Below are positions 1 through 15,865 of a DNA stretch of 64,000 bases, in pieces (position 1 is the first letter of the stretch; the number at the start of each line of letters is the position of its first letter). The notes under the pieces were generated by a model. That model was not told the DNA's origin. It saw nothing but the letters and a program-made list of their open reading frames with translations, and made no database searches. The DNA comes from Shigella phage ESh15, in sequence record ON528725; one strand, written 5' to 3'. Both the position numbers and the translations under genes were made by a program.

Positions 1-299
1 TCAGATTCCATGAATTCTTTCACCTTAGTGACGAATGTTTTCCAATTATTAATAGAAAAACATTCGTCTTCAGTTTCGATATTAACCCCACTATAAAGCC
101 CGTGATAAAAACGAACTTGAAGGTCTTCGTCAATGTTAATTACAGATGCATGGCCCGGTGGATTGAGCTTCAAAATCTTGTCCAGTTCCATAGGAAGAAT
201 AGTAACAGCATCATCTTCTTGTGTCAGAACGTAAGCGTAACCACGTTTTTCGATACATAAATCACCAAACAACTCAGTTGTTTCAATTACAGTTTTCAT
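1..299 (-). CDS. hypothetical protein, C-terminal end beyond window start
   Basis: ATG at 297-299 (minus) preceded by GGTGA SD; frame stays open to position 1, so no stop inside the window and it is absent from the ORF track. Confidence 0.4.
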   Translation of the reverse strand, partial: MKTVIETTELFGDLCIEKRGYAYVLTQEDDAVTILPMELDKILKLNPPGHASVINIDEDLQVRFYHGLYSGVNIETEDECFSINNWKTFVTKVKEFMES

Positions 300-300
300 A

Positions 301-480
301 TTATTCACCAATTAAAGTTTCAACAAAATTCACCAAATCATTCAGACAAGCATCAACCTGATTTTCATAAAAGTCTTCGTTATCATTTACCGCATGATAA
401 GCTACATCATTCAAATCTGAATCGGCTTCACGTAAGTTACGGATAAGTTCCATCAGTTTATTAGCTTGTTCACGGGTCAT
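301..480 (-). CDS. hypothetical small acidic protein (59 aa)
   Basis: ATG at 478-480 overlapping the stop of the upstream small ORF (ATGA); below track length cutoff; weak SD. Confidence 0.3.
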   Translation of the reverse strand: MTREQANKLMELIRNLREADSDLNDVAYHAVNDNEDFYENQVDACLNDLVNFVETLIGE

Positions 481-587
481 TTTACCATACTCGTTTCAAT
501 AAGATTCACTATGCCGTTTACCATGTTATAAGTAAACATCGGATAATTGTATTGTACTACAACATAAGCGATAAGCAAAAGTTTCAT
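477..587 (-). CDS. hypothetical hydrophobic peptide (36 aa)
   Basis: ATG at 585-587 with GGAG SD, directly downstream of the early promoter cassette at 616-645. Confidence 0.25.
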   Translation of the reverse strand: MKLLLIAYVVVQYNYPMFTYNMVNGIVNLIETSMVK

Positions 588-615
588 TTTGTTCTCCGTT
601 TGTTTTGATAGGACT

Positions 616-645
616 ACTATAACATAGTCCTACCAAGATGTAAAC
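616..645 (-). promoter_or_regulatory. early promoter cassette (-35 GTTTAC, -10 TATAGT inside inverted repeat)
   Basis: plus-strand gtaaac at 640-645 and actataa at 616-622; 8-bp inverted repeat taggacta/tagtccta flanks the -10. Confidence 0.6.
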
Positions 646-851
646 TACCGATTGTGTTTTAAATGTTGATAAAGTTCTTCAACTTGTTTAGGGTCCAAAA
701 CAATTAAGTCATTTTCTTGGCGAAGATAAATCCATCCCTTATCCCCAGGACCATTTTTACAAAACATCACCACCATATCATCATCTTCAGCGCTTTCAGG
801 TAAAAGTTCAAGTACACCGTCTTCAGATTTTCCAGTATAATCGTAAAGCAT
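645..851 (-). CDS. hypothetical acidic protein (68 aa)
   Basis: ATG at 849-851 with GAGGA SD; track ORF extends to 878 (also ATG but no SD). Confidence 0.45.
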   Translation of the reverse strand: MLYDYTGKSEDGVLELLPESAEDDDMVVMFCKNGPGDKGWIYLRQENDLIVLDPKQVEELYQHLKHNR

Positions 852-858
852 AATGTCC

Positions 859-1038
859 TCACATAATCTCGTTAACATACATTTGCAATTCGGTGTGGGC
901 GTCGGCCATCTTTTTCATAGCTCTGTTAATGTCGATGTCTCCATCTTCGCAACCATGAGCATTTTCCCAATCGGATACAGAATTAGCATACTCTTCAATC
1001 AAAAACATCAACTTAGAAATCTTTTCTTTACGTGTCAT
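859..1038 (-). CDS. hypothetical protein (59 aa), rI.-1 position
   Basis: ATG at 1036-1038 with GAGGAG SD; the longer track ORF starts at a non-SD codon. Confidence 0.45.
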   Translation of the reverse strand: MTRKEKISKLMFLIEEYANSVSDWENAHGCEDGDIDINRAMKKMADAHTELQMYVNEIM

Positions 1039-1065
1039 AACGTTCTCCTCTAGTAAGTAAAGACT

Positions 1066-1094
1066 ACTATAACACAACCTGAGGAGAAGTAAAC
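1066..1094 (-). promoter_or_regulatory. early promoter cassette
   Basis: gtaaac at 1089-1094, -10 from plus actata 1066-1071; inverted repeat ttctcctc/gaggagaa pairs the SD region with the spacer. Confidence 0.6.
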
Positions 1095-1105
1095 TGATAG
1101 ATGCC

Positions 1106-1133
1106 AAAAAGCCCCAACCATAAGGAAGGGGCT
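1106..1133 (-). terminator. rho-independent terminator downstream of rI
   Basis: minus-strand hairpin agcccc-12nt-ggggcu followed by UUUUU (plus A-run 1106-1110). Confidence 0.6.
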
Positions 1134-1139
1134 AGTAAA

Positions 1140-1442
1140 TTAGATAGATGTAGGCTCTAATTTTATTTTCATGAACTCAGCAAATTGTCTGGCAGTTTTT
1201 ATGCCTTGTTCATGACATTCAAATGCATCATCACAGGGGCTATTTTTGTAATGCTTTGCCATATACTTATAGAATTTTTCAGAATTCTCGACATTTTGAA
1301 TTTCAAACAAAGTATATACGTTTTTAATCCCTGATTCCATAAAGTTATCAAAATATGGGTCAATATGTGCAGTACCAACGATAGGAGTTGTTGCTGCAAA
1401 AAACCCCAGCATCGCTATGACAGCTATCGCTCTTAAGGCCAT
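1140..1442 (-). CDS. rI: lysis inhibition regulator rI (membrane-anchored periplasmic protein)
   Basis: 100 aa, N-terminal transmembrane segment, resemblance to T4 rI as recalled (MAL..., DPxFDxFMESGI), position next to tk. Confidence 0.7.
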   Translation of the reverse strand: MALRAIAVIAMLGFFAATTPIVGTAHIDPYFDNFMESGIKNVYTLFEIQNVENSEKFYKYMAKHYKNSPCDDAFECHEQGIKTARQFAEFMKIKLEPTSI

Positions 1443-1454
1443 ATAGGCCTCCTG

Positions 1455-1667
1455 TTAATTTTGGCCAGTATTTATTTTTCGCCTTTGGACGGCCTTAACA
1501 TCTGCGAGGTATTTTTCCAGCTTGCGCTTGCGTGTATAATCAGCTTTAGAACCAGTTTGACGGATATCCTCGTTTAAATGAGAAATAGAATGTCCTAATT
1601 CTCTTCGGATTTCATCCAATTGGGTTACAGTAAGATTACGAAGTTGTCTTTCGTTTAATTGCTGCAT
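1455..1667 (-). CDS. hypothetical basic protein (70 aa), rI.1 position
   Basis: ATG at 1665-1667 with AGAGG SD; between tk and rI. Confidence 0.5.
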
Positions 1668-1694
1668 ATATACCTCTTGGTTAGATATTAGTAT

Positions 1695-2276
1695 TTATAA
1701 CAACCCTGTCAAATCATTCCAATGCTTCCGGCATAATGACACGTATCTATCGGTATCACCAATTTCAATTTGACTGCCATCTGTAATTGGAAGTCCGTCT
1801 TCCGTGACTCTAGCTACCATTGTGGCCTTTTTACCACAATGACAGACACCTTTAAGTTCAACAAGCTTATCGGCAATAGCCATTAATGCTTGAGAACCTT
1901 CAAATAGATTACCTTTAAAATCTGTTCGTAGTCCATATGCCATTACTGGCACATTGTATACGTCAACAATACGACTAAGTTGATACACCTTTTCAGTAGT
2001 TAAGAACTGAGCTTCGTCAACAAATACACAGTGAATATCCTTTTGTGCCGCAGCCCATTTATAGAATTCAAAGACATCCATATCTTCGGTAATTATATTG
2101 GCATCCTGACGAATACCAATACGAGAGACTATTTCACCTTTTGAATCACGAGTATCAATAGCCGGTTTAAGAACTAATACACCCATGCCACGTTCTTTAT
2201 AGTTATGTGCGGCAGTAAGTAATGAAGCAGACTTACCAGCGTTCATAGCGGCATAGGTAAAAATTAAACTAGCCAT
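1695..2276 (-). CDS. tk: thymidine kinase
   Basis: 193 aa, P-loop AMNAGKS, zinc-ribbon CHCGKKA...CRKH; T4 Tk length. Confidence 0.9.
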   Translation of the reverse strand: MASLIFTYAAMNAGKSASLLTAAHNYKERGMGVLVLKPAIDTRDSKGEIVSRIGIRQDANIITEDMDVFEFYKWAAAQKDIHCVFVDEAQFLTTEKVYQLSRIVDVYNVPVMAYGLRTDFKGNLFEGSQALMAIADKLVELKGVCHCGKKATMVARVTEDGLPITDGSQIEIGDTDRYVSLCRKHWNDLTGLL

Positions 2277-2285
2277 AAGAGTCCC

Positions 2286-2468
2286 TTATAGTGAATTCAC
2301 ATAGTCAATGAGTTCTTGTTCTTTCCTGTCAAATGATTCCAACAATGCTTGATATTCTTCATCTGTTAAAGGAGCATATTCATCGTACGCATTGGTGGCT
2401 GCTTGCTCATCCAATAGGTCATGGATAAGTTCGAACAGTTTAGCTTTTTCTTCTTTAGTCAATTTCAT
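2286..2468 (-). CDS. hypothetical acidic protein (60 aa)
   Basis: ATG at 2466-2468; tk.1 position. Confidence 0.45.
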   Translation of the reverse strand: MKLTKEEKAKLFELIHDLLDEQAATNAYDEYAPLTDEEYQALLESFDRKEQELIDYVNSL

Positions 2469-2959
2469 TTAGGTTCCCAATCAACAATCACAATTTCTAG
2501 TTTAGTGGAATACGTATCTAAAATCTCTTCGATGACATCCCAGTTTCCACCACCAATACCTGCACCAATTCTTGGCATATAAATTACAGGCTTTGTTATC
2601 TTATTCTTTCCGAATTTATTTAATTCTATTATACAATTCATTAAAGCAGAGTACTCAAAATTAGGTCCCGGCTCAAACTGTGTATAAAGATTAAAGCAAT
2701 AAGCTTTATGGGTCTTAAAATATTTTTCATAAACCGAATAAGACCCGAGTTTAGACTCGTCTCCGAATTCGGTTTGAAGTTTATCGGCTTCCAGAATTTT
2801 TGGATAAGCCTTTGCTAATTGACCTGCTACACCAGCGCCCATTGTATGAAAACAATTACACCCATGAGCAATATTATTACCTTTAGAAAACAGGGCGACA
2901 ATATCGCCCTTGATATAGTTTTTAATCACTTGCTGCAAGTCCTCTAGTATAAGAGTCAA
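2465..2959 (-). CDS. macrodomain-like protein (putative ADP-ribose binding or hydrolase)
   Basis: motifs N-x-x-x-MGAGVAGQL and P-R-IGAGIGGG match the two glycine-rich loops of macro domains; first codon is TTG at 2957-2959 (GGTGGA SD), alternative GTG at 2927-2929. Confidence 0.55.
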   Translation of the reverse strand: MTLILEDLQQVIKNYIKGDIVALFSKGNNIAHGCNCFHTMGAGVAGQLAKAYPKILEADKLQTEFGDESKLGSYSVYEKYFKTHKAYCFNLYTQFEPGPNFEYSALMNCIIELNKFGKNKITKPVIYMPRIGAGIGGGNWDVIEEILDTYSTKLEIVIVDWEPK

Positions 2960-3269
2960 CTAGACGGTCCACCATAGAATTGCATGCTGCCTTATCTTTA
3001 GGTTCCGCCACCGAGCATTCTAATATTTGCCATTTTTTATAGTATCTTTTAATTAAGGTAGACGCCTTGAACCTACTAGACGCCCCATCTTTTTCTCCGT
3101 CTTTATATGCGTATAACAATTTTTGTGAAAAATCTACTTTACACTCTTGACTTTTACCACAATAATCAGACGCCGTTCTGTTTGTATACTCCGTTACATC
3201 AGTATATGTAGTATTAGCAAGAGCGTTAAATGAAACCAAGCCAACTATTAAAGCTAACATTTTGGTCAT
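2922..3269 (-). CDS. small secreted/periplasmic protein with signal peptide (vs position)
   Basis: 115 aa, N-terminal MTKMLALIVGLVSFNALA signal peptide, ATG at 3267-3269. Confidence 0.5.
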   Translation of the reverse strand: MTKMLALIVGLVSFNALANTTYTDVTEYTNRTASDYCGKSQECKVDFSQKLLYAYKDGEKDGASSRFKASTLIKRYYKKWQILECSVAEPKDKAACNSMVDRLVDSYTRGLAASD

Positions 3270-3808
3270 TCTTTTATTTCCAGTAGTTTATTTGATTTAA
3301 GGTAATTAGCCTTTTCTAGGACTTCAGAAGCATATTTACTTCCAGCACTTGTCTTCCATCCCGCATTATATGAGGATATGGCTTTCCTTATATCCCCGTT
3401 ATGTATATTTAACCAATAAGAAAATTCGATATAAGCCCATCTTGCTGAATTAGACCGCTTAGATAGCATTTTCTTAATTTGGGCATCAGTCATATTATAA
3501 CCAAGCTGGTTAATTCTTGCCCTCATTGTTGGTAGATAGTTTTGGAACATTCCATACGCATGGTGACCTTTCTTATCTTTAAGATTAATACCGGCGGATG
3601 ATTCTTGCCATAGTATTGCGGCCATTATGTATCCAAGTCCTTTCTTATGCATATTTTCATGCGTTTTAAATTTTCCGTCCTTAGAAAACTGTTCCCCAAA
3701 CTGATAAGCATAATTCAAGTTATCGAGTTGGACATTACTAAAAGTATGCTCGGAGCTATGTGCTGATAACGAAAGAGCAAATAGACCAGCGAGTAGTGCT
3801 TTTCTCAT
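3266..3808 (-). CDS. periplasmic lytic-transglycosylase-like (SLT domain) protein
   Basis: 180 aa, signal peptide, catalytic-type E-S-S motif (ILWQESSAG) and AYNAG-like SYNAGW motif; GAGGT SD. Confidence 0.6.
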   Translation of the reverse strand: MRKALLAGLFALSLSAHSSEHTFSNVQLDNLNYAYQFGEQFSKDGKFKTHENMHKKGLGYIMAAILWQESSAGINLKDKKGHHAYGMFQNYLPTMRARINQLGYNMTDAQIKKMLSKRSNSARWAYIEFSYWLNIHNGDIRKAISSYNAGWKTSAGSKYASEVLEKANYLKSNKLLEIKE

Positions 3809-3816
3809 GTTTACCT

Positions 3817-4275
3817 CTAGATTTTAATCACTGCTTTAGAAGCTTTTCCTGGTAGTCGTTTACTGTTAATAATAGCCATTCTGCATTGAAGAGTCTTCAT
3901 TTTGAATGCCGGATTTTCGCGACAAACTGTAAGTCCTAACCAAAGATTTCCATCAGTTATTTCTAAACGGCCTGGGCGATATTCGACACCTTCGACAAAA
4001 TCTTCATCAACATCTGGACGTGCCGGCATTGATAAAAATTCTGCAACTTCTTTAACATGATTTTTTACTTTATGAAATAATTCAAAAACGTAATTCTCAT
4101 CTATTTCTCTCTGGATGGCACGATCTAAGAGATGTTGAGAATACTTGATATGAAAGCCTGGTAGTCCAAGAGACTTTGCAGCATCTTTTATACCGGCATT
4201 TATTTTGCGGAACTCCGTTTCAAAGATTCGACGGAGTTTATTACGACGGATAAAAACTTCCGAATTGATAGTCAT
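3817..4275 (-). CDS. regB: RegB site-specific endoribonuclease
   Basis: 152 aa; N-terminus MTIN(S/T)EVFIRRNKLRR and C-terminus CRMAIINS(K/R)RLPGKASKAVIK match T4 RegB as recalled. Confidence 0.85.
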   Translation of the reverse strand: MTINSEVFIRRNKLRRIFETEFRKINAGIKDAAKSLGLPGFHIKYSQHLLDRAIQREIDENYVFELFHKVKNHVKEVAEFLSMPARPDVDEDFVEGVEYRPGRLEITDGNLWLGLTVCRENPAFKMKTLQCRMAIINSKRLPGKASKAVIKI

Positions 4276-4300
4276 TTTGATTTCTCCTCTAGTTGACAGG

Positions 4301-4332
4301 TCTATAGTAACACAACTAGAGGAGAAGTAAAC
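4301..4332 (-). promoter_or_regulatory. early promoter cassette upstream of regB
   Basis: gtaaac 4327-4332; -10 TACTAT from plus tctatagta 4301-4309; 12-bp inverted repeat including the SD. Confidence 0.6.
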
Positions 4333-4336
4333 TACT

Positions 4337-4546
4337 TTATTCTTGGAACGGTGTGAGTTTTCCAGCTATCGAACAAATTTCTACCATCGCAGGATAAAAC
4401 TCTTTCACTTGTTCAAGGCGCTGGACAGCGTACCGCATTTCGCCTTCTTCAAGACAAGCCGCCTGGTCATCGAGCAAATATTTGTGGTAACCTGTACAGG
4501 CTTCGCTAATGATACGTTGGAATTCTTGCAAACTTTCAATTTTCAC
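4337..4546 (-). CDS. hypothetical protein (69 aa), probable GTG start
   Basis: first codon GTG (plus cac 4544-4546) with GAGGA SD, overlapping upstream stop by 1 nt. Confidence 0.4.
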   Translation of the reverse strand: MKIESLQEFQRIISEACTGYHKYLLDDQAACLEEGEMRYAVQRLEQVKEFYPAMVEICSIAGKLTPFQE

Positions 4547-4812
4547 TAGTATTTTTCCTCGGGTCTAAATACTGCACGACAGGCCCACATGCTGGCTTCT
4601 TTTAGATGTTGCTTAGCGTACTTAAGAGCCTGCACTGCATCCATATCTTCTTTGGTTTGTTGCTCTGTTTCATTTTCTTTCAAGATATATGCTTCTTCAA
4701 TCAGAGCATCAAACATCAATCCAAGACGGACTTCAGCATCTTTAATAGCGTTCACTTTACTAATTTTATCATCGGTATGCGGCTTGTAGCCTTTGATGTC
4801 TTCAATTGACAT
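4546..4812 (-). CDS. hypothetical small helical protein (88 aa), vs.4-like position
   Basis: ATG at 4810-4812 with GAGGA SD; track ORF extends further at a non-SD codon. Confidence 0.45.
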   Translation of the reverse strand: MSIEDIKGYKPHTDDKISKVNAIKDAEVRLGLMFDALIEEAYILKENETEQQTKEDMDAVQALKYAKQHLKEASMWACRAVFRPEEKY

Positions 4813-5026
4813 AAGGAATTTCCTCATCGGTGGCAAGGTCATATTCGACCAATTGGATAGGCTCATTAATACCATATCCACGTACAGTGATATCAGTTGT
4901 CGGATAGTTTCCAGTAATATCACCCATTCTAAATGCTTCAATGAATGATTGCTCGCCTGAGCAACTAAACCAGGCGGCAAAACATTTTAAAACATCTTCA
5001 GACCCTTCTATAATCAATTTAGCCAT
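4802..5026 (-). CDS. hypothetical acidic protein (74 aa)
   Basis: ATG at 5024-5026 overlapping the upstream stop (TAATG). Confidence 0.45.
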   Translation of the reverse strand: MAKLIIEGSEDVLKCFAAWFSCSGEQSFIEAFRMGDITGNYPTTDITVRGYGINEPIQLVEYDLATDEEIPYVN

Positions 5027-5388
5027 TATAGACTCTCAGTAAAGGTACGAGCGATAACGTCGCGCTGCTGTTCCGGAGTCAGAGAGTTAAAGCGAACTGC
5101 ATAACCGGATACACGGATGGTCAGTTGCGGATATTTTTCCGGATGCTTAACTGCATCTTCCAGAGTTTCGCGACGCAGAACGTTAACGTTCAGGTGTTGA
5201 CCACCTTCAATTTTAACTTTAGGTTGATGTTCAATTTCAATTTCACGGGCATTCAAACCGTAGAAAATTTCCGGGTCTACAATAGCGTCTTCTTTAAAAG
5301 TCTTAGAGACAATAATCCGGGCTTGAGTACCGTCTTCAAAATAAATAGTGCCTTTGTGTGTGCCTTCAAGAATTTGATATGCTTTCAT
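5026..5388 (-). CDS. autonomous glycyl radical cofactor, GrcA/YfiD-like (T4 Y06I-like)
   Basis: 120 aa; C-terminal glycyl-radical motif RVSGYAVRF; C-terminal ~65 aa look the same as E. coli GrcA as recalled. Confidence 0.8.
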
Positions 5389-5394
5389 ATAACC

Positions 5395-5703
5395 TCAATT
5401 AGAAAATAAATTTATCCAAGTTTTTTCTTTAATCAAAAATGGGTCGGAATTAAACGCCATTAAACTTTGAGTGGTTAATCCCTTAAATGGCCCATCAATA
5501 AATTCCATTTTGAAATGCGGAATACTAGTCATCAACCGTGCATTAGGAGCAGTACAAAGAACCTGCTGCCCTGCGAACGGACCTTTAGTCAAACGATATC
5601 GTTTAGGTTTAAAATGGTAAATCTCGTAATTTTCTACAAGAGCCCTTTTATTGCATACTGGGCTGTTATAACAATACTCAAAAACTTCAATAGTGGTCAT
5701 CAT
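5395..5703 (-). CDS. hypothetical protein (102 aa)
   Basis: ATG ATG at 5698-5703; overlaps upstream stop. Confidence 0.5.
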   Translation of the reverse strand: MMTTIEVFEYCYNSPVCNKRALVENYEIYHFKPKRYRLTKGPFAGQQVLCTAPNARLMTSIPHFKMEFIDGPFKGLTTQSLMAFNSDPFLIKEKTWINLFSN

Positions 5704-6239
5704 TGCATTCCAATCACAAAAAATTGAGGACGAGCATTACCGCCTATGCAATATTTGCTTTTGCAACAGTGTTGGACTGTTTTAATATGTACATTGTAAA
5801 TCTTATCCATATCAGGAGCTTTAATAGGCTCGTCAATTATATACAGAATACGAGAAAGCGTTAATCCACGGAATTTAGAACCTTCATTGCCAATAAAACT
5901 ACGAACAGAATCAGTAAATAAACGGAATCGAATATCGTCGCTAGAATAACGAGAAAATTCTTTTTTAATGTTGCCAACAGAAATTTTAGCATAAGCTGAA
6001 GTATTAGAAAGAACAATAACTGTTCCACCATCATACAGCCAATTAACAGCGAAATTAGTTACTGCGGTCGATTTACCTGATTGTCTGCCGCCGTCTAAAC
6101 GAAGTGTACAGTACTGCTTGAGTACGTCTTCAAATGGTGGGACATAACCGTTCTTACAAATTTCTTCTACTCTAGCATCAGAATGGTGTGTAAAAGCATT
6201 CATCAGGGATAGATAAGGTCCAGTTAAAAATGTTCTCAT
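5700..6239 (-). CDS. P-loop NTPase (Walker A/B) of unknown function
   Basis: 179 aa; Walker A GGRQSGKST, Walker B-like ILYIIDEP; ATG at 6237-6239. Confidence 0.6.
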   Translation of the reverse strand: MRTFLTGPYLSLMNAFTHHSDARVEEICKNGYVPPFEDVLKQYCTLRLDGGRQSGKSTAVTNFAVNWLYDGGTVIVLSNTSAYAKISVGNIKKEFSRYSSDDIRFRLFTDSVRSFIGNEGSKFRGLTLSRILYIIDEPIKAPDMDKIYNVHIKTVQHCCKSKYCIGGNARPQFFVIGMQ

Positions 6240-6412
6240 TTAGTTTCTCTTAAGGTTGGGGCCATTCCGTGGCACATGTTAGGTCCTTCGACTCGCTATG
6301 TAAACCCATTACCGCACTTGGGCTCGACCTTATTACAGGTTGGAAAAGGTACATCACTCAGAGGACTCGACGTTCGTGAGGAGAGGTTGCGTTTCCCTTT
6401 ATTAGGCAAGAA

Positions 6413-6742
6413 TTATACTCTAGGCTTTTGAGCTTGTTTGGTATTGGATTCCCACGCTGCTTTAGTAATTTTGTTAGCGGCATAGCCAAAGGCATTAGAT
6501 AGAACACCTTTAGAGTTGAATACATCCAATCCAATAAGTACACCGGCTGCGTTAAATTTAGGAGCAAAGTATGCATTAGTTTTAGAAAGAGCTTTTTTCA
6601 ATTCAGGGTCTTGAACCAAGCCATCAAAAACGCCTTTACCATTTACTTTATATGTTACTTTAGGATTTTTACCTTCTTCGATAGCAGCTTTCTGTTCCGC
6701 AGATAATGTAACTTCAGTGATAAATTCTTGATACGTTTTCAT
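6413..6742 (-). CDS. internal-protein (IP) candidate with capsid-targeting sequence
   Basis: 109 aa; N-terminus MKTYQEFITE matches the T4 IP capsid-targeting sequence; basic. Confidence 0.65.
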   Translation of the reverse strand: MKTYQEFITEVTLSAEQKAAIEEGKNPKVTYKVNGKGVFDGLVQDPELKKALSKTNAYFAPKFNAAGVLIGLDVFNSKGVLSNAFGYAANKITKAAWESNTKQAQKPRV

Positions 6743-6783
6743 ATGTTTCCTTTAAATGTAAATAGGCCTAAGTATAGGCCTTA

Positions 6784-7362
6784 TTAATTACCACGGGCCG
6801 CATTAGCGACGGCGTAAGCGTACTGAACATTAGCGTCTTTAAACGTACCTTTAGATGTATCTATTTCTGCCTTAAAGCCACCTTTAGCCATAACATCGGC
6901 AAATTCTTTACGGAAAGCCATTGCATCAAGACCTTTCCATGATGATTTATGCTTGGCAAATTCAAGACCAGCGTAGTTGACAGCTTTAGCTAATTTATTA
7001 TCAATAACCCATTTACCGGCTTTAGGCACAAACTTCGGGCCTTTTTGTTTAGAGAACAGTTTTAAATTCCAGCGACGAAGGTCACTGTCGGCTTTAACAA
7101 AAGCTGCGTCTAAGTTACTAGCAACAACATCTTCAATATGAGCAAATTTAAGTCCGTCAACTTCAATATTTAGATCGTTACGCCAGCGTAGTCCTTCCCA
7201 AGCGAAGGCTTTAAAATCAGAAGCCTTTGTAGCTAAGTACCGTTCAATAGGAGCTGTTTTAGGGTCAAAGCCGTTTCCGCCACGATAATTCCACTCGTCC
7301 TTATTAATGCCTTGAGCTTTTCCTGCAAAGGCCTCGGCGATAAATTCTTTATATGTTTTCAT
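6784..7362 (-). CDS. internal-protein (IP) candidate with capsid-targeting sequence (IPIII-sized)
   Basis: 192 aa; N-terminus MKTYKEFIAE. Confidence 0.65.
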   Translation of the reverse strand: MKTYKEFIAEAFAGKAQGINKDEWNYRGGNGFDPKTAPIERYLATKASDFKAFAWEGLRWRNDLNIEVDGLKFAHIEDVVASNLDAAFVKADSDLRRWNLKLFSKQKGPKFVPKAGKWVIDNKLAKAVNYAGLEFAKHKSSWKGLDAMAFRKEFADVMAKGGFKAEIDTSKGTFKDANVQYAYAVANAARGN

Positions 7363-7388
7363 TTTTGTTCCTATTCTTTTAATTTATG

Positions 7389-7703
7389 TTATTCTTTAGG
7401 GAAGTTTTTAGAGTATGCGTCATAAAGTTTATTACCGATGCGACGGAAGACTTTAGCTGCAAAACGGTTTTCAGGGTTTTTAATCATGATTTGCATCATG
7501 TAAGTTCCTGCATCCGAAAGAGCTTCTTCATAGTACCCGTTAATTTCTTTAAGAGTCCTACGTTTACCACCAGGACCATCAACAGTAATTTTCCATTTAC
7601 CTGTAGAAGTGCGGCTCGGTGGCTCAACTTGTTCAATCCAAATATAACCACCTTCAACGCGTTGGTTGGCGGATTCTGCAATAAATTCTTTATACGTTTT
7701 CAT
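7389..7703 (-). CDS. internal-protein (IP) candidate with capsid-targeting sequence
   Basis: 104 aa; N-terminus MKTYKEFIAE; early promoter cassette immediately upstream. Confidence 0.65.
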   Translation of the reverse strand: MKTYKEFIAESANQRVEGGYIWIEQVEPPSRTSTGKWKITVDGPGGKRRTLKEINGYYEEALSDAGTYMMQIMIKNPENRFAAKVFRRIGNKLYDAYSKNFPKE

Positions 7704-7733
7704 TTTTGTTTCCTTGTTTGTTTTGATAGAGTA

Positions 7734-7763
7734 ATTATACCATATTAATACTTAAGCGTAAAC
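7734..7763 (-). promoter_or_regulatory. early promoter (-35 GTTTAC, -10 TATAAT)
   Basis: gtaaac 7758-7763; plus attata 7734-7739 gives minus TATAAT. Confidence 0.55.
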
Positions 7764-7766
7764 AAT

Positions 7767-8027
7767 TTAAGCTTTACCGCCAGAAATAATTCCGAAGTTG
7801 TTAAAATCGTATCCAATATCGTCAACATCTACTTTAGGACTTGCTACAACATAAGCAATTTCACTACGTTTTGCATAGGTGTTGATTTCTTTACCATCGC
7901 CACCTAAGAAAGAATACCCATTACGTTTTAATGAGCCAAAGTCTTCCTCATCACCAATGAAAGCTTTAACTTTAAATTTTGGGTCTTTGGCATCTGCTTC
8001 AGTGATAAATTCTTGATACATTTTCAT
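7767..8027 (-). CDS. internal-protein (IP) candidate with capsid-targeting sequence
   Basis: 86 aa; N-terminus MKMYQEFITE; AAGGA SD. Confidence 0.6.
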   Translation of the reverse strand: MKMYQEFITEADAKDPKFKVKAFIGDEEDFGSLKRNGYSFLGGDGKEINTYAKRSEIAYVVASPKVDVDDIGYDFNNFGIISGGKA

Positions 8028-8033
8028 TTTTCC

Positions 8034-8447
8034 TTAGTAAATTGATTTACCATAGTATTTGTACCAAGTCGGACGTTGAGCAATTTTTTCATCTAAGCGT
8101 GCTTGACTTATCGCAATGGACGCTTCGGACGGGACATAATTATTACGAAATTCGGCAGGGATGTCGGAAATATCCTGGACAGTCGTGTCCTTGATTTTGA
8201 AACCACGTTTCAAACATTCAGCGATTAGCTCGATTTGGCGTAAACGTAAAAATTCGAGTTTGTCGTAAAAGAATGTTACGTGACCCTTGCCTAAGATAAA
8301 TGTTGGAGAGATTTTAAAATCCTTTACACGTTTACCGTTTTGAACATGTTTACGGACTGCACCAAATACGCGTGGTAATTCACGATACTCAGCCATAAGA
8401 TGTTGGTCGGTCAGTTCAGAAACAAGTGTTAAATTGATACGAGTCAT
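8034..8447 (-). CDS. denV: endonuclease V (pyrimidine-dimer DNA glycosylase)
   Basis: 138 aa from ATG at 8445-8447 (GGAGGA SD); [12 protein letters not shown]...AEYRELPR...WYKYYGK match T4 DenV as recalled. Confidence 0.9.
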
Positions 8448-8472
8448 AATTTCCTCCAAGTAGTTGATGAAT

Positions 8473-8504
8473 GTATAGTATCAAAACCCTTGGAGGAAGT
8501 AAAC
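8473..8504 (-). promoter_or_regulatory. early promoter cassette upstream of denV
   Basis: gtaaac 8499-8504; -10 TACTAT; 10-bp inverted repeat ttcctccaag/cttggaggaa pairs the denV SD with the promoter spacer. Confidence 0.6.
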
Positions 8505-8505
8505 A

Positions 8506-8787
8506 CTATTTTTCTGAAGCGCCTGAAATATATTTTTCAAGACGTTGTTTCATCAGCGAGCCGTTCTTAGCGATTTCTTCCGGTTTATCGCACATACGCA
8601 ACAACGCTTCAAGCTTAACGATATCACTGGTGCGCTCAAATTTGCGAGTATCTATCTTACTGGCAAGTTCAGAAATACGTGCTAATAGACTTTCAGCTTC
8701 GACCAAAGCTGCACCTAGCTTAGTTGCAAATGTGTCAGTAGCTTCGTTAAGAATAGATTCTGATAAAAATTCACTATATGTTTTCAT
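8506..8787 (-). CDS. internal-protein (IP) candidate with capsid-targeting sequence
   Basis: 93 aa from ATG 8785-8787 (ATGA overlap with e stop); N-terminus [10 protein letters not shown]; sits between e and denV where T4 has ipIII/ipII. Confidence 0.65.
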
Positions 8788-9272
8788 ATATACGCTTTCC
8801 AAGTTCCTGTTTTAAATGTTGAGATTACGCGTTTCGCGCGATTAGGTGTCTGACGATACCATTTAGATTGGGCTAGATTTACTGCCGCTTCGTCCCAACG
8901 TTTCTGTTGAAGCATACGAAGAGAATTAGTAAAACCGGCGACGCCTGCTACACCCATTTGGAAGACCATATTGACTAATGCACATCGACGAACTGCGTCT
9001 AAAGAATCATATACCGGTTTAAGTTTAGCATTACCCAAGATTCCGCGAACGGCTTTATCAACATCTTCATTAAATAGCTTTTCAGCCTCATCAAGGGTAA
9101 TTGTACCGTTGCATTTACGACCGATCATTCTGTCAAGTTCAGTTTTAGCTACGGCTAAAGACGGGTTCTTTGTTACCAAATGGCCTATGCCAATAGTCCA
9201 AAAGCCTTCGGTGTCTTTGTATAAAGTCAGTCTAAGACCTTCGTCATTACGAAGCATTTCAAATATATTCAT
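8784..9272 (-). CDS. e: lysozyme e (endolysin)
   Basis: 163 aa from ATG 9270-9272; MNIFEMLR(N/I)DEGLRL...TEG matches T4 lysozyme including catalytic E11 and D20. Confidence 0.95.
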
Positions 9273-9274
9273 AA

Positions 9275-9298
9275 TACCTCCCACGTTTATAGGAGGTA
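9275..9298 (-). promoter_or_regulatory. SD-sequestering hairpin in the e leader
   Basis: minus-strand uaccucc-10nt-ggaggua places the GGAGG of e in a stem; loop contains TATAAAC; same architecture as the known T4 lysozyme translational control. Confidence 0.5.
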
Positions 9299-9306
9299 TT
9301 TATTAC

Positions 9307-9765
9307 TTATAGGAGGGTAGTGAGCACCTTATATAATGATTTGCCCATCACATATTCCCATTGAGAAGGTTTAATTAAAGCGAATGCATCAAATTCAGGA
9401 ATTTGTCGTCCGTCTGGGAATGTATGATAGGAATTACAAACACTGTTTCTGAATTGCTCGTGCTCTACAGGGATGGTATATAGGAACAGATGAATATTCT
9501 TATTGTCTGAGTAATGATGTTCACCTAGGTCTTTCAGGAAGGCAGGGTCATATTGTGTAAACCCAGTTTCTTCTTCGCATTCACGAATAGCGGCTTCGAT
9601 AGGAGATTCGCCGGGTTCGACACGGCCTTTAGGAATATCCCACCGATGAGCTAAAGAACCTTTAGGACGAGAACCAGTTACACGCCCCATGAATAACTCT
9701 TTATCTTTTGTCATGAAGATAATACCGGCTGATAGTTCTTTCACTTTATTTTTCTTACTCATCAT
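9307..9765 (-). CDS. nudE: Nudix hydrolase NudE
   Basis: 152 aa; Nudix box GRVEPGESPIEAAIRECEEETG; immediately upstream of e as in T4. Confidence 0.8.
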   Translation of the reverse strand: MMSKKNKVKELSAGIIFMTKDKELFMGRVTGSRPKGSLAHRWDIPKGRVEPGESPIEAAIRECEEETGFTQYDPAFLKDLGEHHYSDNKNIHLFLYTIPVEHEQFRNSVCNSYHTFPDGRQIPEFDAFALIKPSQWEYVMGKSLYKVLTTLL

Positions 9766-9991
9766 CTCGGTCCCATGATTTGGCCATTAATTCGGACATA
9801 AATTCTTCAATGCGCGTTTCTTTAGATGGACTTTCACTATTAGAGACCGCAAGTTTGTAATCTGCAATAGGACTGAACAAATCAAGGTCCATATTAAGAT
9901 CGTCTTTGATTTTTTCTTCTGACACATCTTTATCATATGTGTACAGATAACTATCACATGATTCTGATTTAATGTAAATTGCTATACTCAT
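9755..9991 (-). CDS. hypothetical acidic protein (78 aa)
   Basis: ATG 9989-9991 with AGGAA SD, ATGA overlap with upstream stop. Confidence 0.45.
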   Translation of the reverse strand: MSIAIYIKSESCDSYLYTYDKDVSEEKIKDDLNMDLDLFSPIADYKLAVSNSESPSKETRIEEFMSELMAKSWDRDDE

Positions 9992-10479
9992 CTCAAATTC
10001 CTGCATTCGGTAATAAAACGTTCAACTTCATTATTCTTGGCCTTTATCTTGTCTTTACGTTCCTGTAAACTACTTTTAACAAGATTAATAATGATGCCTA
10101 TAGTACCTCCACCAATAATACCACCAATAATACTTACGATAGTAGATGCTAATAAGATAGCGATAATATCTGGTATGGCAAAGGCGCTTACTTTAGTACT
10201 AAAAAACCATACCGATGGTACAAATATAATCCATCCTGTTATCCATTGGCACTTATTGAAAAACTTTTCAAGCTCAGCTTGAGTTGTTCGTATTACTTCA
10301 TCGATAGGTTGATATCCATTAATGTATCTGTTCACAATAATACCTGCTGGCTGGTCGATTTTAAATTCTTGGCAAATACGTTTCACTAAGTAGGATGGAC
10401 ATCCTGTCCAATCCACTGAATAGTACGAAATACCTTCGTTGCCGTCGTCAATATTAGACCAATATGTTTTGTTAATCAT
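9988..10479 (-). CDS. hypothetical membrane protein
   Basis: 163 aa; Gly/Ile-rich transmembrane segment IIAILLASTIVSIIGGIIGGGTIGIIINLV; GGAAGG SD. Confidence 0.5.
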   Translation of the reverse strand: MINKTYWSNIDDGNEGISYYSVDWTGCPSYLVKRICQEFKIDQPAGIIVNRYINGYQPIDEVIRTTQAELEKFFNKCQWITGWIIFVPSVWFFSTKVSAFAIPDIIAILLASTIVSIIGGIIGGGTIGIIINLVKSSLQERKDKIKAKNNEVERFITECRNLR

Positions 10480-11165
10480 TACCAGCCTTCCATAGGGAAT
10501 TCCAGATAAACTTGAGCATTGACACGAATTTCATTAGTAATCTTTTTAACTCGGTCTGTATTACGAGATACACGTCCGAACCAACGCCATCCGTTACTAA
10601 TTGCACGAGAACCAGTGTGCCATGTTTGCCAATCAAACTGAAGAAGAGTACGGTCTGGAGCTTCCCATTTCTCTAGTTCACCTTTTTCAATTTTTTCGAG
10701 GACTTCTTTGTGCCACTGGCGATAGATAAGTTCGCCATCAGGAATCTGACTGAACTCTGCAGTTCCTGTTGCAAAATGAGTAGGACACACGTCAGCGTTA
10801 ACAAGACCAAGAATATGTTCAGAATGGTAACGAGGGTTGTCATAGTCAGGTTGTCCTGCAGTAATAAAGTGTTGACCAACCGGAATATCCGGGCGTGGTA
10901 CATCGTCATGGTGATAACCTGGTATAGCAGGGTACCAACCAGGCATCAGCATATGAACCCGAGAATCAAATACAACCTGGTCGGTGTTCCAATCATCTGG
11001 CAAGTTCATGATGAAGCTGCGAGTAATAGGACCGCCGTTATTATAAGCAAATTCTAAACTACAGTTGAAGAACATAGGCTCGTTCTTGATTTTATCATTA
11101 GAAATACCGCCGGCAAAACCACCTACTGCACGAGCTTGACTATTAAACACTTTAGAACTATTCAT
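10479..11165 (-). CDS. hypothetical protein (228 aa), His/Asp-rich
   Basis: ATG 11163-11165 with GAGGA SD; contains GYHHDD and HSEH clusters, function not assignable. Confidence 0.55.
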   Translation of the reverse strand: MNSSKVFNSQARAVGGFAGGISNDKIKNEPMFFNCSLEFAYNNGGPITRSFIMNLPDDWNTDQVVFDSRVHMLMPGWYPAIPGYHHDDVPRPDIPVGQHFITAGQPDYDNPRYHSEHILGLVNADVCPTHFATGTAEFSQIPDGELIYRQWHKEVLEKIEKGELEKWEAPDRTLLQFDWQTWHTGSRAISNGWRWFGRVSRNTDRVKKITNEIRVNAQVYLEFPMEGW

Positions 11166-11166
11166 A

Positions 11167-11472
11167 TTATTTTCCTCGACATTCTTTAATGAAATTTTCT
11201 AGATTGGTAGATTCAATAGCTTTTTTACGAGCTTCTGCATGTTCTTCTTCAGACAATTTACATTTATAATTAACCCAGACGTTATGGTCAAAACTAGTCG
11301 TGGCATATAATAACAAAGCCCCGACGAATAATAAAAACGGTGATAAGAATACAAAACCAGGAACACCATCCATATCGTAAGCCTTTTGTAATACTGCAAC
11401 AGAAAGAGTTGCGTAAAAAGGTGATGCAAATATTGTTAAAAGACCAATTCGGTTGGTTTCTGTTAATTTCAT
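11167..11472 (-). CDS. hypothetical membrane protein (101 aa)
   Basis: two predicted transmembrane helices; ATG 11470-11472 with GAGGAG SD. Confidence 0.5.
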   Translation of the reverse strand: MKLTETNRIGLLTIFASPFYATLSVAVLQKAYDMDGVPGFVFLSPFLLFVGALLLYATTSFDHNVWVNYKCKLSEEEHAEARKKAIESTNLENFIKECRGK

Positions 11473-11498
11473 AATATTCTCCTCATGTTTTAATAGGA

Positions 11499-11530
11499 CT
11501 ACTATAACATAGTCCTATAATTGTGTAAAC
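11499..11530 (-). promoter_or_regulatory. early promoter cassette
   Basis: gtaaac 11525-11530, -10 TATAGT, 9-bp inverted repeat ataggacta/tagtcctat. Confidence 0.6.
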
Positions 11531-11542
11531 AGTTTTGTGAAG

Positions 11543-12499
11543 TTATTTGAAAGGTTTTACCATATGGAAATTTTGTTTGAAACGTTTTACATAATCGTCA
11601 TGTCCTAAGCTTTGGTACATACTTACAACTTTGCTGTAGTTTTCCCAAGCGTATTCACGGAACCAGCCTGACGTGATTGAAGTACAGACCTTTTCAAGAG
11701 CCATCATAAAACTATCACGTGGATGGATTTTAAAGTCATTAGGAATCTGAGAACGTTCTAATGCTAGTACACATGATTCTTCGTATACACCGGCCAATTT
11801 GACCATTTCTGGTAATGATTCGAACTTCTCGCGTGAGGTCATGACTTCAGAACCATCTTTCATGTAAAACGTATAAGCAGGGCGGTCTGTTAGTGCAATG
11901 GCTTCGTGAATAGTATCATGATCGTATGTGTAGATGTCATCTTTAAAGAATGCGCTTTTAGAAGTGTCAAGAACCGGGTGAGCATAGTTCAATGTTTCTT
12001 TCTGGCGTTTAAGCATAATTTCAGTAAGTTCATCGTTCAGTGTAACACCTTTACCACGAAGATACTGAATATGGTTCATAGTCTTTAAAAAGAATGGATT
12101 ATTTTTCTTGAAACGATGAGACATCTTAATTGCAAGACACATCTCAGGAGTTGCCCAGTAAAACCCGTTCAAACGATCTTTAGTCAAATTTTTCTTGGCG
12201 TATTTTAAAAGGTCATAAGAAGACGTGAAATCTTCAGGAGTGAGTTCACCAACTAATTCACGGACATTAGTGATTGCCGGAACAATATATGCTTCAAAAT
12301 GAGTTTCGCGTCCATTATGGAAGCATTTGAAAACTTGGACATCAGGGTTATCTTGGTGAACATATACACCCATCATTTGATTTTTGAATGCATTCCAAGA
12401 ACCTTGGTCCGCAATAAAGTCCCAATCACTATTTTTGATAGCGCTAGAATCAATAAGGCCGTGATAGTGAAGTGCACGAGAACCAATAACTAACATCAT
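11543..12499 (-). CDS. hypothetical protein (318 aa)
   Basis: ATG ATG at 12494-12499 with GAGGA SD; N-terminal GS...DWD pattern weakly reminiscent of a nucleotidyltransferase. Confidence 0.55.
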   Translation of the reverse strand: MMLVIGSRALHYHGLIDSSAIKNSDWDFIADQGSWNAFKNQMMGVYVHQDNPDVQVFKCFHNGRETHFEAYIVPAITNVRELVGELTPEDFTSSYDLLKYAKKNLTKDRLNGFYWATPEMCLAIKMSHRFKKNNPFFLKTMNHIQYLRGKGVTLNDELTEIMLKRQKETLNYAHPVLDTSKSAFFKDDIYTYDHDTIHEAIALTDRPAYTFYMKDGSEVMTSREKFESLPEMVKLAGVYEESCVLALERSQIPNDFKIHPRDSFMMALEKVCTSITSGWFREYAWENYSKVVSMYQSLGHDDYVKRFKQNFHMVKPFK

Positions 12500-12524
12500 A
12501 ATAATTTCCTCAAATTTAGATTAC

Positions 12525-12764
12525 TTAAATTTCACGACATGCGATATTATATTCATCCCAGAGGTCATCATGTGAAGCCTCTACCAATGGAACGATTGTA
12601 CCATTTATGTCTTCATTATAAGGACAAATTGTACAGTGCGCATCTTCGAATCGGATGCCTTTGTGTTCAGATTTTTTATAACGCATATCGAATATCTTTG
12701 CAAACTTTTCACGAGTAATAGTTTTAGCAACTACTTCGGTTCCGATACTTTCGTAATAAATCAT
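12525..12764 (-). CDS. hypothetical Cys-containing small protein (79 aa)
   Basis: ATG 12762-12764 with GGAG SD; HCTICP motif. Confidence 0.45.
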   Translation of the reverse strand: MIYYESIGTEVVAKTITREKFAKIFDMRYKKSEHKGIRFEDAHCTICPYNEDINGTIVPLVEASHDDLWDEYNIACREI

Positions 12765-12790
12765 TGTGGACTCCATTTAATTTGATAGGA

Positions 12791-12822
12791 CTACTATAAC
12801 ATAGCCCTATCTTGTTGTAAAC
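12791..12822 (-). promoter_or_regulatory. early promoter cassette
   Basis: gtaaac 12817-12822; -10 TATAGT; inverted repeat with one mismatch. Confidence 0.55.
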
Positions 12823-12827
12823 TGTTT

Positions 12828-13025
12828 TTAGCAAGAATAACTAGATGATACCCAGCCTTGAACAGTAATACTATTATTTGATAACGAGATCGCGTCCTGG
12901 AGATTCAGACCTGCGTTATCTTCAATCCATAATGTAACTTCTTCGCGTTCTTCTGTTGCAATTTGGAACAGGTTTTCCAGAGCAGCTACTGCCGTACGTA
13001 CAGCACAATCTAATTCACGAGACAT
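12828..13025 (-). CDS. small protein, member 3 of tandem GWVSSSxxC family (65 aa)
   Basis: C-terminus QGWVSSSYSC; AAGGA SD junction identical in style to the two upstream paralogs. Confidence 0.5.
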   Translation of the reverse strand: MSRELDCAVRTAVAALENLFQIATEEREEVTLWIEDNAGLNLQDAISLSNNSITVQGWVSSSYSC

Positions 13026-13034
13026 ATTGTTTCC

Positions 13035-13307
13035 TTAGCAAGTGTGAGAAGATGCAACCCAACCGCCATCTTCAAGGCTCAGGTTGTAGTCGTATTGGTA
13101 AACGTCAGCCCATTCAGCATAGCCGTTTTTTGTACAACGTTCAAGATCGGCTTTAAGATGTCCTGGTGAATGATAGGTTCCACCCATACCATAAGCTGGA
13201 TACAAGTCAAATGTTGTGTTTTGTTTATTGGCAATTTCTTTGGCTGCCTCAATAGCTGCATAGATTTTTGCTACGGCTTCAGCCAGTTCGGTTTGTTCTT
13301 TAGACAT
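13035..13307 (-). CDS. small protein, member 2 of tandem GWVSSSxxC family (90 aa)
   Basis: C-terminus DGGWVASSHTC; internal YGMGGTYHSPG motif shared with member 1. Confidence 0.5.
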   Translation of the reverse strand: MSKEQTELAEAVAKIYAAIEAAKEIANKQNTTFDLYPAYGMGGTYHSPGHLKADLERCTKNGYAEWADVYQYDYNLSLEDGGWVASSHTC

Positions 13308-13316
13308 AATGATTCC

Positions 13317-13622
13317 TTAGCACAATGCAGAAGACGAAACCCAAGCACCTTCAGTAATAACGTAACCATTACCTTCACGCTTAACGTCGCCACCATTATT
13401 TTCAATTTCATTTTTCATCCACTGGGATACGATTTCACCCTTAGGATAATAAGTACGACCGCTACCATAATCACCTACAGAAAATGATACAGCATATTGG
13501 TCTGCGATCTTTGTTGCTTCTTCTTCGATACGTTCAGCTTGATTCAGAAGTTTATAAATTGCATCTGAAGCGGATTTGGCATCATTAAACTCTGGCACTT
13601 TAATTTCAATAATCTTACTCAT
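13317..13622 (-). CDS. small protein, member 1 of tandem GWVSSSxxC family (101 aa)
   Basis: C-terminus EGAWVSSSALC; internal YGSGRTYYPKG motif; AAGGA SD. Confidence 0.5.
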   Translation of the reverse strand: MSKIIEIKVPEFNDAKSASDAIYKLLNQAERIEEEATKIADQYAVSFSVGDYGSGRTYYPKGEIVSQWMKNEIENNGGDVKREGNGYVITEGAWVSSSALC

Positions 13623-13680
13623 TTTCTACATTCCTTAATAAAGTTTTCGATTGTTTCATTTTCACGTCTAGCTAGGAGTT

Positions 13681-13710
13681 CATTATAACTAATCATTTGA
13701 GAAGCGTAAA
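13681..13710 (-). promoter_or_regulatory. early promoter (-35 GTTTAC, -10 TTATAAT) for the triplet
   Basis: gtaaac 13705-13710; plus attataa 13681-13687; 17-nt spacer. Confidence 0.55.
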
Positions 13711-13720
13711 CAGCATAAAT

Positions 13721-14113
13721 TCAGTTAAGGCTTTTGCATCTTATCTCCTTAACGAATTCCATGGCTTCATTGTATTCATACTTTTTAACAGCTTCATCAT
13801 ACTGAGCTTGGGCTTTTGCGCACTGAACTTTCCATTCTCTTAATCGGGCTCTGTGATGACGGCCTTGGTGCCAATATCCTGCCCAATTAATAGGCATTAA
13901 TAAAAACGGTACAATAAGTGGTGCGACGAACATTAATGAAAATGCTGCATCAGACGATATAACTTCACTAGAATCTAAAACAGCTCCTATAATCATAAAG
14001 ATTAAAAATGCTAAAGCTAAAATAGGACCAAACAACACCTCATTAGGAATTAATTTACGTTTGTATTCGTATGCCCAGGGCTTAATTGGCATGTACAGGG
14101 TTGGCTTTGACAT
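13721..14113 (-). CDS. hypothetical membrane protein (~130 aa)
   Basis: two predicted TM helices; ATG at 14111-14113 (track start at 14143 is a TTG). Confidence 0.45.
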   Translation of the reverse strand: MSKPTLYMPIKPWAYEYKRKLIPNEVLFGPILALAFLIFMIIGAVLDSSEVISSDAAFSLMFVAPLIVPFLLMPINWAGYWHQGRHHRARLREWKVQCAKAQAQYDEAVKKYEYNEAMEFVKEIRCKSLN

Positions 14114-14684: not shown

Positions 14685-14703
14685 GTTAACTCCTTTATTA
14701 TCC

Positions 14704-14727
14704 AAAAAAGGAGGACCGGAGTCCTCC
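14704..14727 (-). terminator. rho-independent terminator
   Basis: minus-strand hairpin ggaggac-ucc g-guccucc followed by UUUUUU (plus A-run 14704-14709). Confidence 0.6.
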
Positions 14728-14735
14728 GTATTATT

Positions 14736-15329: not shown

Positions 15330-15370
15330 ATTATTACCTTTCAATTGGTGGTTTATTATCCAACGAGAGC

Positions 15371-15400
15371 ATTATACTCTGCTCTCAAGAGTTTGTAAAT
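15371..15400 (-). promoter_or_regulatory. early promoter (-35 ATTTAC variant, -10 TATAAT in inverted repeat gagagc/gctctc)
   Basis: plus attata 15371-15376, gtaaat 15395-15400. Confidence 0.5.
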
Positions 15401-15627: not shown

Positions 15628-15652
15628 TTTGTTTTCCTCTTGATTTGATGTG

Positions 15653-15685
15653 ATTACTATAACATAAACTTACTTAGATGTAAAT
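15653..15685 (-). promoter_or_regulatory. early promoter cassette (-35 ATTTAC variant)
   Basis: plus actata 15655-15660, gtaaat 15680-15685. Confidence 0.45.
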
Positions 15686-15838: not shown

Positions 15839-15865
15839 TTTGTTTACTCCACTGTAGTTGATAAG

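Follow-up and report, generated by a model that had tools for sequence, protein, structure and literature searches.

The vs.6 locus of phage ESh15

This report concerns a 64,000-nucleotide (nt) stretch of DNA from Shigella phage ESh15 (sequence record ON528725; the whole stretch is referred to as the window) and one gene within it, vs.6, which encodes a GrcA-like autonomous glycyl radical cofactor. The gene is a minus-strand open reading frame (ORF) of 120 amino acids (aa) at 5026..5388 that begins with ATG, and its identification draws on the ORF list, Pfam, matches to PDB structures and synteny. Direct reading of the sequence places its Shine-Dalgarno element, GAGGT, at 5392..5396 (minus strand), 4 nt 5′ of the ATG and beside the end, at 5395, of a vs.7-like ORF. 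The vs.6 stop codon overlaps the ATG of the next ORF, vs.5 (TAATG). On one strand the window carries a vs.8-like ORF (5700..6239), the vs.7-like ORF (5395..5703), vs.6 and a vs.5-like ORF (4802..5026); regB lies at 3817..4275 and an ORF of denV type near 8393, so that vs.6 is flanked as in T4. The order vs.8–vs.7–vs.6–vs.5, with regB and denV lying on opposite sides, is common to the annotations of T4, RB69, Sf21 and PD112, and by this synteny the ESh15 gene belongs to the T4 vs.6 orthologous group of the Tevenvirinae regB–denV early region. A scan of 4300..6800 for promoters and terminators returned counts at the level of shuffled sequence and nothing usable.

Over its first 20 kb the window is ∼96% identical to the Mosigvirus phages moskry, JS09 and p000v, and vs.6 itself is 99.4% identical in DNA sequence to its counterpart in phage phiE142 and 93.7% identical to that of T4. 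The window gene is the ortholog of T4 vs.6 (Y06I) in an RB69-like phage (Mosigvirus). A previous interpretation of this DNA, made from its letters without database searches (the sequence-only reading), had placed a T4 homolog, Y06I, in the regB–denV interval, and both the T4 vs.6 annotation and the window synteny bear this out. The gene is already annotated and its function is known, because work on T4 Y06I has been published and orthologs carry annotations: those of Sf21, T4 and RB69 read vs.6 or "autonomous glycyl radical cofactor GrcA," and RefSeq uses GrcA for the T4 and RB69 copies.

The Vs.6 protein

The motif RVSGYAVRF occupies residues 92 to 100 of the protein. The predicted radical glycine is Gly95 (codon at 5104..5106, minus strand), which the position of RVSGY and alignment to 6OWR and 1H16 make equivalent to GrcA Gly102 and to PflB Gly734, the latter being the radical site of pyruvate formate-lyase (PFL) (PMC8683613). 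Pfam Gly_radical (PF01228) matches the protein with E=2e-18. The best match of solved structure is E. coli GrcA (6OWR; E=2e-42, residues 21 to 120 against 27 to 127), followed by PFL (1H16/2PFL; for 1H16, E=3e-26, residues 57 to 120 against 696 to 759), and 48 of 60 residues of the C-terminal domain are identical to PflB 700-759. Thus the glycyl-radical motif and the GrcA-like identity that had been proposed from the sequence alone stand. The protein has three features of a GrcA-type cofactor. It is a standalone small protein of 120 aa with its own ribosome-binding site and stop, set between unrelated small ORFs; it has the C-terminal RVSGYAV-loop domain of autonomous glycyl radical cofactors (IPR011140, TIGR04365); and its N-terminal half (∼60 residues) is of GrcA type, homologous and diverged.

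E. coli YfiD and T4 Y06I are radicalized by the PFL activase and rescue O2-cleaved PFL, as PMC8683613 relates from the work of Knappe's group (Wagner 2001, pmid 11444864), and are the sole two validated PFL spare-part proteins (PMC8683613). The idea of PFL rescue put forward in the sequence-only reading is, by the same secondary account, the published function of the T4 ortholog. In YfiD, the structured part, residues 61-127, folds like PFL 693-759; residues 1-60, although disordered, are required for binding of cleaved PFL and for efficient activation (PMC8683613).

Relative to T4 Vs.6 (NP_049730.1), the ESh15 protein shares gene position, length (120 aa), 113 of 120 residues and a host-type tract (see below) with the same boundaries. 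It differs as the RB69/Mosigvirus allele: six of the seven substitutions are N-terminal, and the seventh is R73 where T4 has H73. Between the two phages the N-terminal half gives dN 0.048 and dS 0.40 (dN/dS ∼0.12), indicating purifying selection.

E. coli GrcA/YfiD (P68066; 6OWR), which is likewise small and standalone, has the same RVSGYAVRF radical loop and a homologous N-terminal half. The phage protein is 7 residues shorter, and its gene lies in an early-region operon with putative translational coupling to vs.5, whereas host grcA is monocistronic and regulated by FNR and ArcA. The resemblance to the PflB C-terminal domain (1H16/2PFL, 693-759) extends to a β-strand, the Gly loop and a helix at the C terminus, and the two have a sequence motif in common; however, the phage protein is a free-standing 14-kDa polypeptide and the PflB domain is the tail of a 759-residue enzyme, and identity to pflB DNA is only ∼80–84% (as measured on a related phage tract).

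Alignment from the C terminus showed that residues E61 to L120 of the phage protein are identical, 60 of 60, to E. coli GrcA 68-127 (WP_000627807, locus L001). The first mismatches upstream are at residues 60 (I in the phage, V in GrcA) and 59 (K versus R). The host-identical C terminus noticed in the sequence-only reading is thus real, although it spans 60 residues and not ∼65. That reading had also described the N-terminal half (5211..5388, minus strand) as different from GrcA. It is strongly diverged and still homologous: profile–profile comparison of phage and bacterial N termini with hhalign gave a probability of 95.5%, E=1.5e-8, with 29% of residues identical across 48 columns. N termini that are visibly intermediate occur in some phage versions from metagenomes, such as L101. 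By these profile alignments the whole of vs.6 is a GrcA homolog, its N-terminal half being an old, diverged GrcA N terminus.

A host-like DNA tract within vs.6

Site tables, synonymous divergence, GC content and a neighbor-joining (NJ) tree together define a host-derived tract at gene nt 179-353 (window 5036..5210, minus strand), which corresponds to residues 60/61 to 117/118, the structured glycyl-radical domain. The tract is identical at 174 of 175 nt (99.4%) to K-12-type E. coli grcA. Its sole difference is a synonymous G-to-A change in codon 88, at gene nt 264 (window position 5125, minus strand). Among 5,426 complete E. coli genomes, 1,249 match the tract at 174 of 175 nt and none matches at 175 of 175. 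From this single difference the count rises to 4 in another Escherichia species and 16 in Citrobacter, the nearest other genus, with at least 16 in the other genera. Synonymous divergence over codons 61 to 117 behaves in the same way: dS is 0.023 between the window and E. coli, compared with 0.42, 0.55 and 1.24 between E. coli and Citrobacter, K. pneumoniae and Salmonella, respectively, and 1.4–1.8 between E. coli and phages with an identical protein domain (EC-F1 and L094).

The change in mismatch density at nt 178/179 is abrupt, with an approximate Fisher p=2.5e-12 (17/46 upstream versus 1/175 were entered; the printed count for nt 133-178 is 21). Over window positions 1-25000 the tract is the only megablast match to the 5,426 E. 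coli genomes. Composition shifts as well. GC content is 49.1% in nt 179-353, 36.0% in the N-terminal part and 37.9% in the window, and codons 61 to 117, at 49.7%, rank within the top 0.6% of windows of equal size taken from the long ORFs of the phage. The tract uses CTG for 5 of 5 Leu codons (9% in phage usage) and CCG for 3 of 3 Pro codons (16% in phage usage), and its CGC codons are also host-style. A codon-usage comparison of the two gene halves, which the sequence-only reading had suggested together with the GrcA/grcA and T4 Y06I alignments reported above, gave a codon adaptation index for phage usage of 0.733 (79th percentile) in the N-terminal half, which has phage-type codons, and 0.612 in the tract. 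Within one gene, then, the nearest relative changes sharply, and at synonymous sites the tract falls inside the host clade.

Both limits of the tract can be placed. On the left, homology to grcA stops at nt 178/179, a few residues inside the structured-domain boundary as defined in YfiD. On the right, comparison of 3′ ends puts the limit in the last 10 nt of vs.6 (5026..5035, minus strand), where GAA AGC CTG has become GAG AGT CTA. Most T4-like phages examined, Klebsiella phages included, share the changes at nt 354 and 357, and the altered 3′ end yields a Shine-Dalgarno-like element, GAGAG, 6–10 nt before the overlapping vs.5 start. We suggest that GAGAG may be the vs.5 ribosome-binding site, kept by selection for translational coupling. 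Directly after the vs.6 stop, at 5018..5025 (minus strand), the phage has TGGCTAAAT and E. coli has GGCTTAAGT after the grcA stop. In some genomes this similarity carries the megablast host match as far as 5018; it may be a coincidence or a remnant of the host 3′ flank.

Tracts in other phages

The same tract recurs in many phages, with donor alleles that differ among them. In 632 phage records the tract is 95–99% identical to E. coli grcA, and its left end always lies at grcA position 200-202. The T4 tract is the 219T allele, carried by 2,419 E. coli genomes, with a single nonsynonymous change, R73H, added; the tracts of the ESh15 window and RB69 are of the 219C, K-12-type allele; and PD112 shares 204A, 219T, 285A and 336T with an O157:H7 allele. 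At these sites the three coliphage tracts (T4, ESh15/RB69 and PD112) match three different segregating E. coli alleles. A passage in PMC6024577 describes RB69 as not recombining with T4. Between T4-type and RB69-type phages the tract is 97–99% identical and the flanking genes ∼65–85%, the latter figure coming from a multi-locus MAFFT alignment of 3-kb loci that is rough in indel-rich flanks and gives an approximate background only.

Jiaodavirus phages of Klebsiella (JD18, Nispero and KMI11) have the same gene with the same tract boundaries. Their tracts are 6–9 nt from K. pneumoniae grcA and 21–24 nt from E. coli, and they encode the Klebsiella residues L77 and E81; in all, 106 phage records are 95–99% identical to K. 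pneumoniae grcA. In the NJ tree of the tract, bootstrap support is 99.4% for Escherichia plus coliphages, 92.4% for K. pneumoniae plus Jiaodavirus and 91.2% for PD112 plus the O157 allele, and the Pseudotevenvirus and Slopekvirus copies group apart, in a phage clade with long branches. Three E. coli alleles together with K. pneumoniae-type tracts amount to more than one exchange event.

Several records in this comparison need separate comment. The IMG/VR sequence L111, 16 nt from Y. artesiana grcA, was considered as a phage tract tracking Yersinia and rejected, as it is a full bacterial grcA (MITGIQITK...) beside ung; L152-L161 were considered as phage homologs and proved to be bacterial pflB 3′ ends. 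These sequences are likely host flanks of prophage calls. The K. aerogenes reference (L170, NCTC10006) was left out of the distances on account of an extra A in an A-run, which causes a frameshift, and vs.6 of Klebsiella phage KPV15 (L167 1325..1686) appears in the annotation as two short ORFs, 150 and 156 nt long. Both frameshifts could be either real pseudogenes or sequencing errors. In phage phiKp_13 (L175, Slopekvirus) the Klebsiella-type residues L77 and E81 are present, yet the DNA is 32 nt from K. pneumoniae grcA; these residues could reflect either an eroded old conversion or convergence, as the phage adapted to the partner enzyme of Klebsiella.

Weighing of alternative explanations

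The sequence-only reading had attributed the C-terminal identity to recent exchange or strong constraint, and both apply. The same 60 residues are unchanged in GrcA of Citrobacter, Trabulsiella, Edwardsiella, Serratia and Pectobacterium, and also in distant T4-like phages (L094-L096 and EC-F1) whose DNA differs from E. coli at 28–30 of 183 positions; dN is ∼0 throughout the tract comparisons. Because the same 60 aa are found with saturated synonymous divergence, protein identity alone reflects constraint, as far as these comparisons go. An explanation by constraint only, in which purifying selection to fit host PflB and PflA produced the identity without recent DNA exchange, would predict this invariance. 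It is nevertheless very improbable and already contradicted by the data, since protein constraint does not fix synonymous sites: there are 15–30 differences (dS 0.4–1.8) elsewhere versus 1 here, and the phage tracts copy E. coli-specific and even allele-specific synonymous variants. The Pseudotevenvirus/Slopekvirus phages KPN12i, EC-F1 and phiKp13 serve as the control for constraint without exchange. Recent host-to-phage exchange is shown, on the alignments, by how nearly the DNA matches E. coli alleles. We assign the direction from host to phage because the tract nests in the bacterial tree and has host composition and because no E. coli genome carries the phage-specific vs.6 3′ end. Transfer from phage to host would, moreover, sit badly with bacterial grcA, which tracks the relationships of the bacterial species and whose N-terminal part has diverged to match. 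Misassembly of host reads into the phage genome can be taken together with such reverse transfer, and we regard the pair as scarcely credible. Phage preparations are contaminated by host DNA and the tract GC is host-like, as misassembly would require; against it, identical in-frame junctions are seen in >600 phages that were sequenced independently, the reference phages T4 and RB69 among them, and phage-specific sequence lies on both sides of the tract within one ORF. A single ancient capture of the 3′ half of Escherichia grcA by a T-even ancestor, followed by slow vertical or phage–phage descent, is the least improbable of the alternatives and still unlikely. Its support lies in the uniform start of all 632 coliphage matches at grcA 200-202 and in the few 3′-end changes common to most T4-like phages examined. 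A shared breakpoint is expected anyway, however, as homology ends there. The present tree refutes a single capture, with host–phage clades at 99%, 92% and 91% bootstrap and Jiaodavirus tracts nesting with K. pneumoniae and not with the coliphages; the three segregating alleles in three coliphage tracts, and a tract 97–99% identical between non-recombining lineages whose neighboring genes are 65–85% identical, argue against it as well.

A different question is which enzyme the protein serves. It might act on the phage anaerobic ribonucleotide reductase NrdD, or on another glycyl radical enzyme, instead of PFL. Pfam Gly_radical also covers NrdD, an early comparative paper proposed a role for vs.6 in nucleotide metabolism (PMC1524935), and spare parts for further glycyl radical enzymes are the subject of speculation in PMC8683613. 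The domain is, however, identical to that of GrcA and close to PflB, and no NrdD chain occurs among the 33 PDB sequence matches (E≤1e-3) of the protein. Only one RV[SC]GY motif, that of vs.6, was found in six frames of the 64,000-nt window, and no nrdD-type RVCGY occurs in any frame of 1..64000; by this motif, a phage anaerobic reductase gene, if present, is outside the window. Rescue of PFL in vitro by the T4 orthologue, as relayed in PMC8683613, and the tracking of host grcA alleles, which fits a host partner, point the same way. The support of anaerobic ribonucleotide reductase that the sequence-only reading had offered as a second function thus finds no backing in these results. We consider replacement of PFL by another partner improbable, slightly more so than a single ancient capture; a dual role, in PFL and in anaerobic ribonucleotide reductase, may exist.

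Proposed origin and function of vs.6

Taken together, the sequence data establish a mosaic gene with a host-derived part that came from multiple sources. Recurrent conversion of a pre-existing phage homolog by the grcA of the current host would be the simplest account, a mechanism that we infer. We favor, with a probability of roughly 0.8, the interpretation that vs.6 encodes a PFL spare part whose host-derived tract arose by recurrent host-to-phage gene conversion. T4-type phages recombine at high frequency and can rescue markers from plasmid DNA that contains cytosine, and for this reason such conversion is plausible. Under the favored interpretation, the N-terminal half would have been acquired anciently, would have diverged and would have been kept by purifying selection, and nt 179-353 would have been overwritten recently, and repeatedly, by homologous recombination with grcA of the infected host. 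Protein constraint would keep the DNA similar enough for recombination to start, and each conversion would restore near-identity and ease the next. The tract would end where homology ends, on the left at the boundary between the disordered and structured domains and on the right at vs.5 translation signals that have to be kept. In the infected cell, the host activase PflA would turn Gly95 into a radical, and the radical domain would dock into host PFL whose own radical domain had been cut off by oxygen. Conversion of pyruvate to acetyl-CoA and formate, and hence fermentative ATP, would be kept going under the microaerobic conditions of the gut in a cell that, with host expression shut off, could presumably no longer make its own GrcA.

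Several points weigh against the favored interpretation. The protein scores 159.1 bits against the equivalog model TIGR04365 (spare_glycyl), below the cut-off of 170, because its N-terminal half is diverged. Its PFL-rescue function is assigned by orthology, and the selective benefit for a lytic phage is presumed. The event count, drawn from few sequences, is a lower bound, and phage–phage recombination could spread an allele within a genus; conversion during laboratory propagation may equally give the host allele. T4-like phages of Salmonella would be expected to have a Salmonella-type tract, yet 50,697 phage records gave no match above 90% identity to Salmonella grcA, which means that host tracking is not a general rule. 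Finally, KPN12i, EC-F1 and phiKp13, Pseudotevenvirus/Slopekvirus phages of Klebsiella and Enterobacter, have tracts that diverged long ago, with 27–36 differences and no close bacterial donor in the panel.

We consider it somewhat better than an even chance that vs.6 evolves in concert with host grcA, its 175-nt block being overwritten by the allele of the last host, and that this behavior has so far gone undescribed. Our literature search turned up no account of gene conversion at vs.6 or of its identity at the DNA level; an earlier mention is possible, as key older papers lay outside the search. What the present analysis adds to the known gene is modest and possibly unreported: the host-identical half is host DNA in the literal sense, taken up more than once and from alleles and species that differ. 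The phenomenon belongs to a known category, that of mosaic host/phage metabolic genes. Zeidner in 2005 and Sullivan in 2006 reportedly described mosaic psbA and psbD genes of cyanophages produced by intragenic host–phage recombination. Like them, vs.6 is a metabolic gene of host origin carried by a virulent T4-like phage, with a patchwork structure and host-specific clustering. It differs in that the patch, essentially identical to current host alleles, is a fixed block of 175 nt whose limits are set by loss of homology, and in that it is found in enterobacterial T-even phages otherwise without a host DNA match (25 kb tested).

If concerted evolution with host grcA is confirmed, virulent phages that degrade host DNA would keep one standing homologous-recombination channel with the bacterial chromosome, of which vs.6 would be a clean natural example. 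The tract would then be a built-in record of the recent host species, or even lineage, from which host assignment could be read in isolates and metagenomes, and it would provide a natural assay for rates of host-to-phage recombination. The distinction between E. coli-type and Klebsiella-type tracts suggests a simple host-assignment marker for T4-like phages. That the N-terminal recognition half tolerates change and the radical domain does not is relevant to efforts to engineer spare parts for further oxygen-sensitive glycyl radical enzymes.

Neighboring ORFs

The ORF in the vs.4 position (4546..4980, minus strand) matches the Pfam Acb2/Tad1 hairpin domain with E=3e-17, and T4 vs.4 is the anti-CBASS sponge Acb2. 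This ORF was called from a TTG codon; its true start is probably an internal ATG (MSIEDIKGY...). Four minus-strand ORFs begin with MKTY[QK]EFI, at 6413..6742, 6784..7362 and 7389..7703, which stand in tandem between vs.8 and denV, and one starting at 20001. This N terminus is presumably of the capsid-targeting-sequence type found in T4 internal proteins. The vs.8-like ORF (5700..6239, minus strand) contains a Walker-A-like sequence, GGRQSGKST, and has a weak, below-threshold match to Terminase_6N (E=0.009), which hints at a putative P-loop NTPase.

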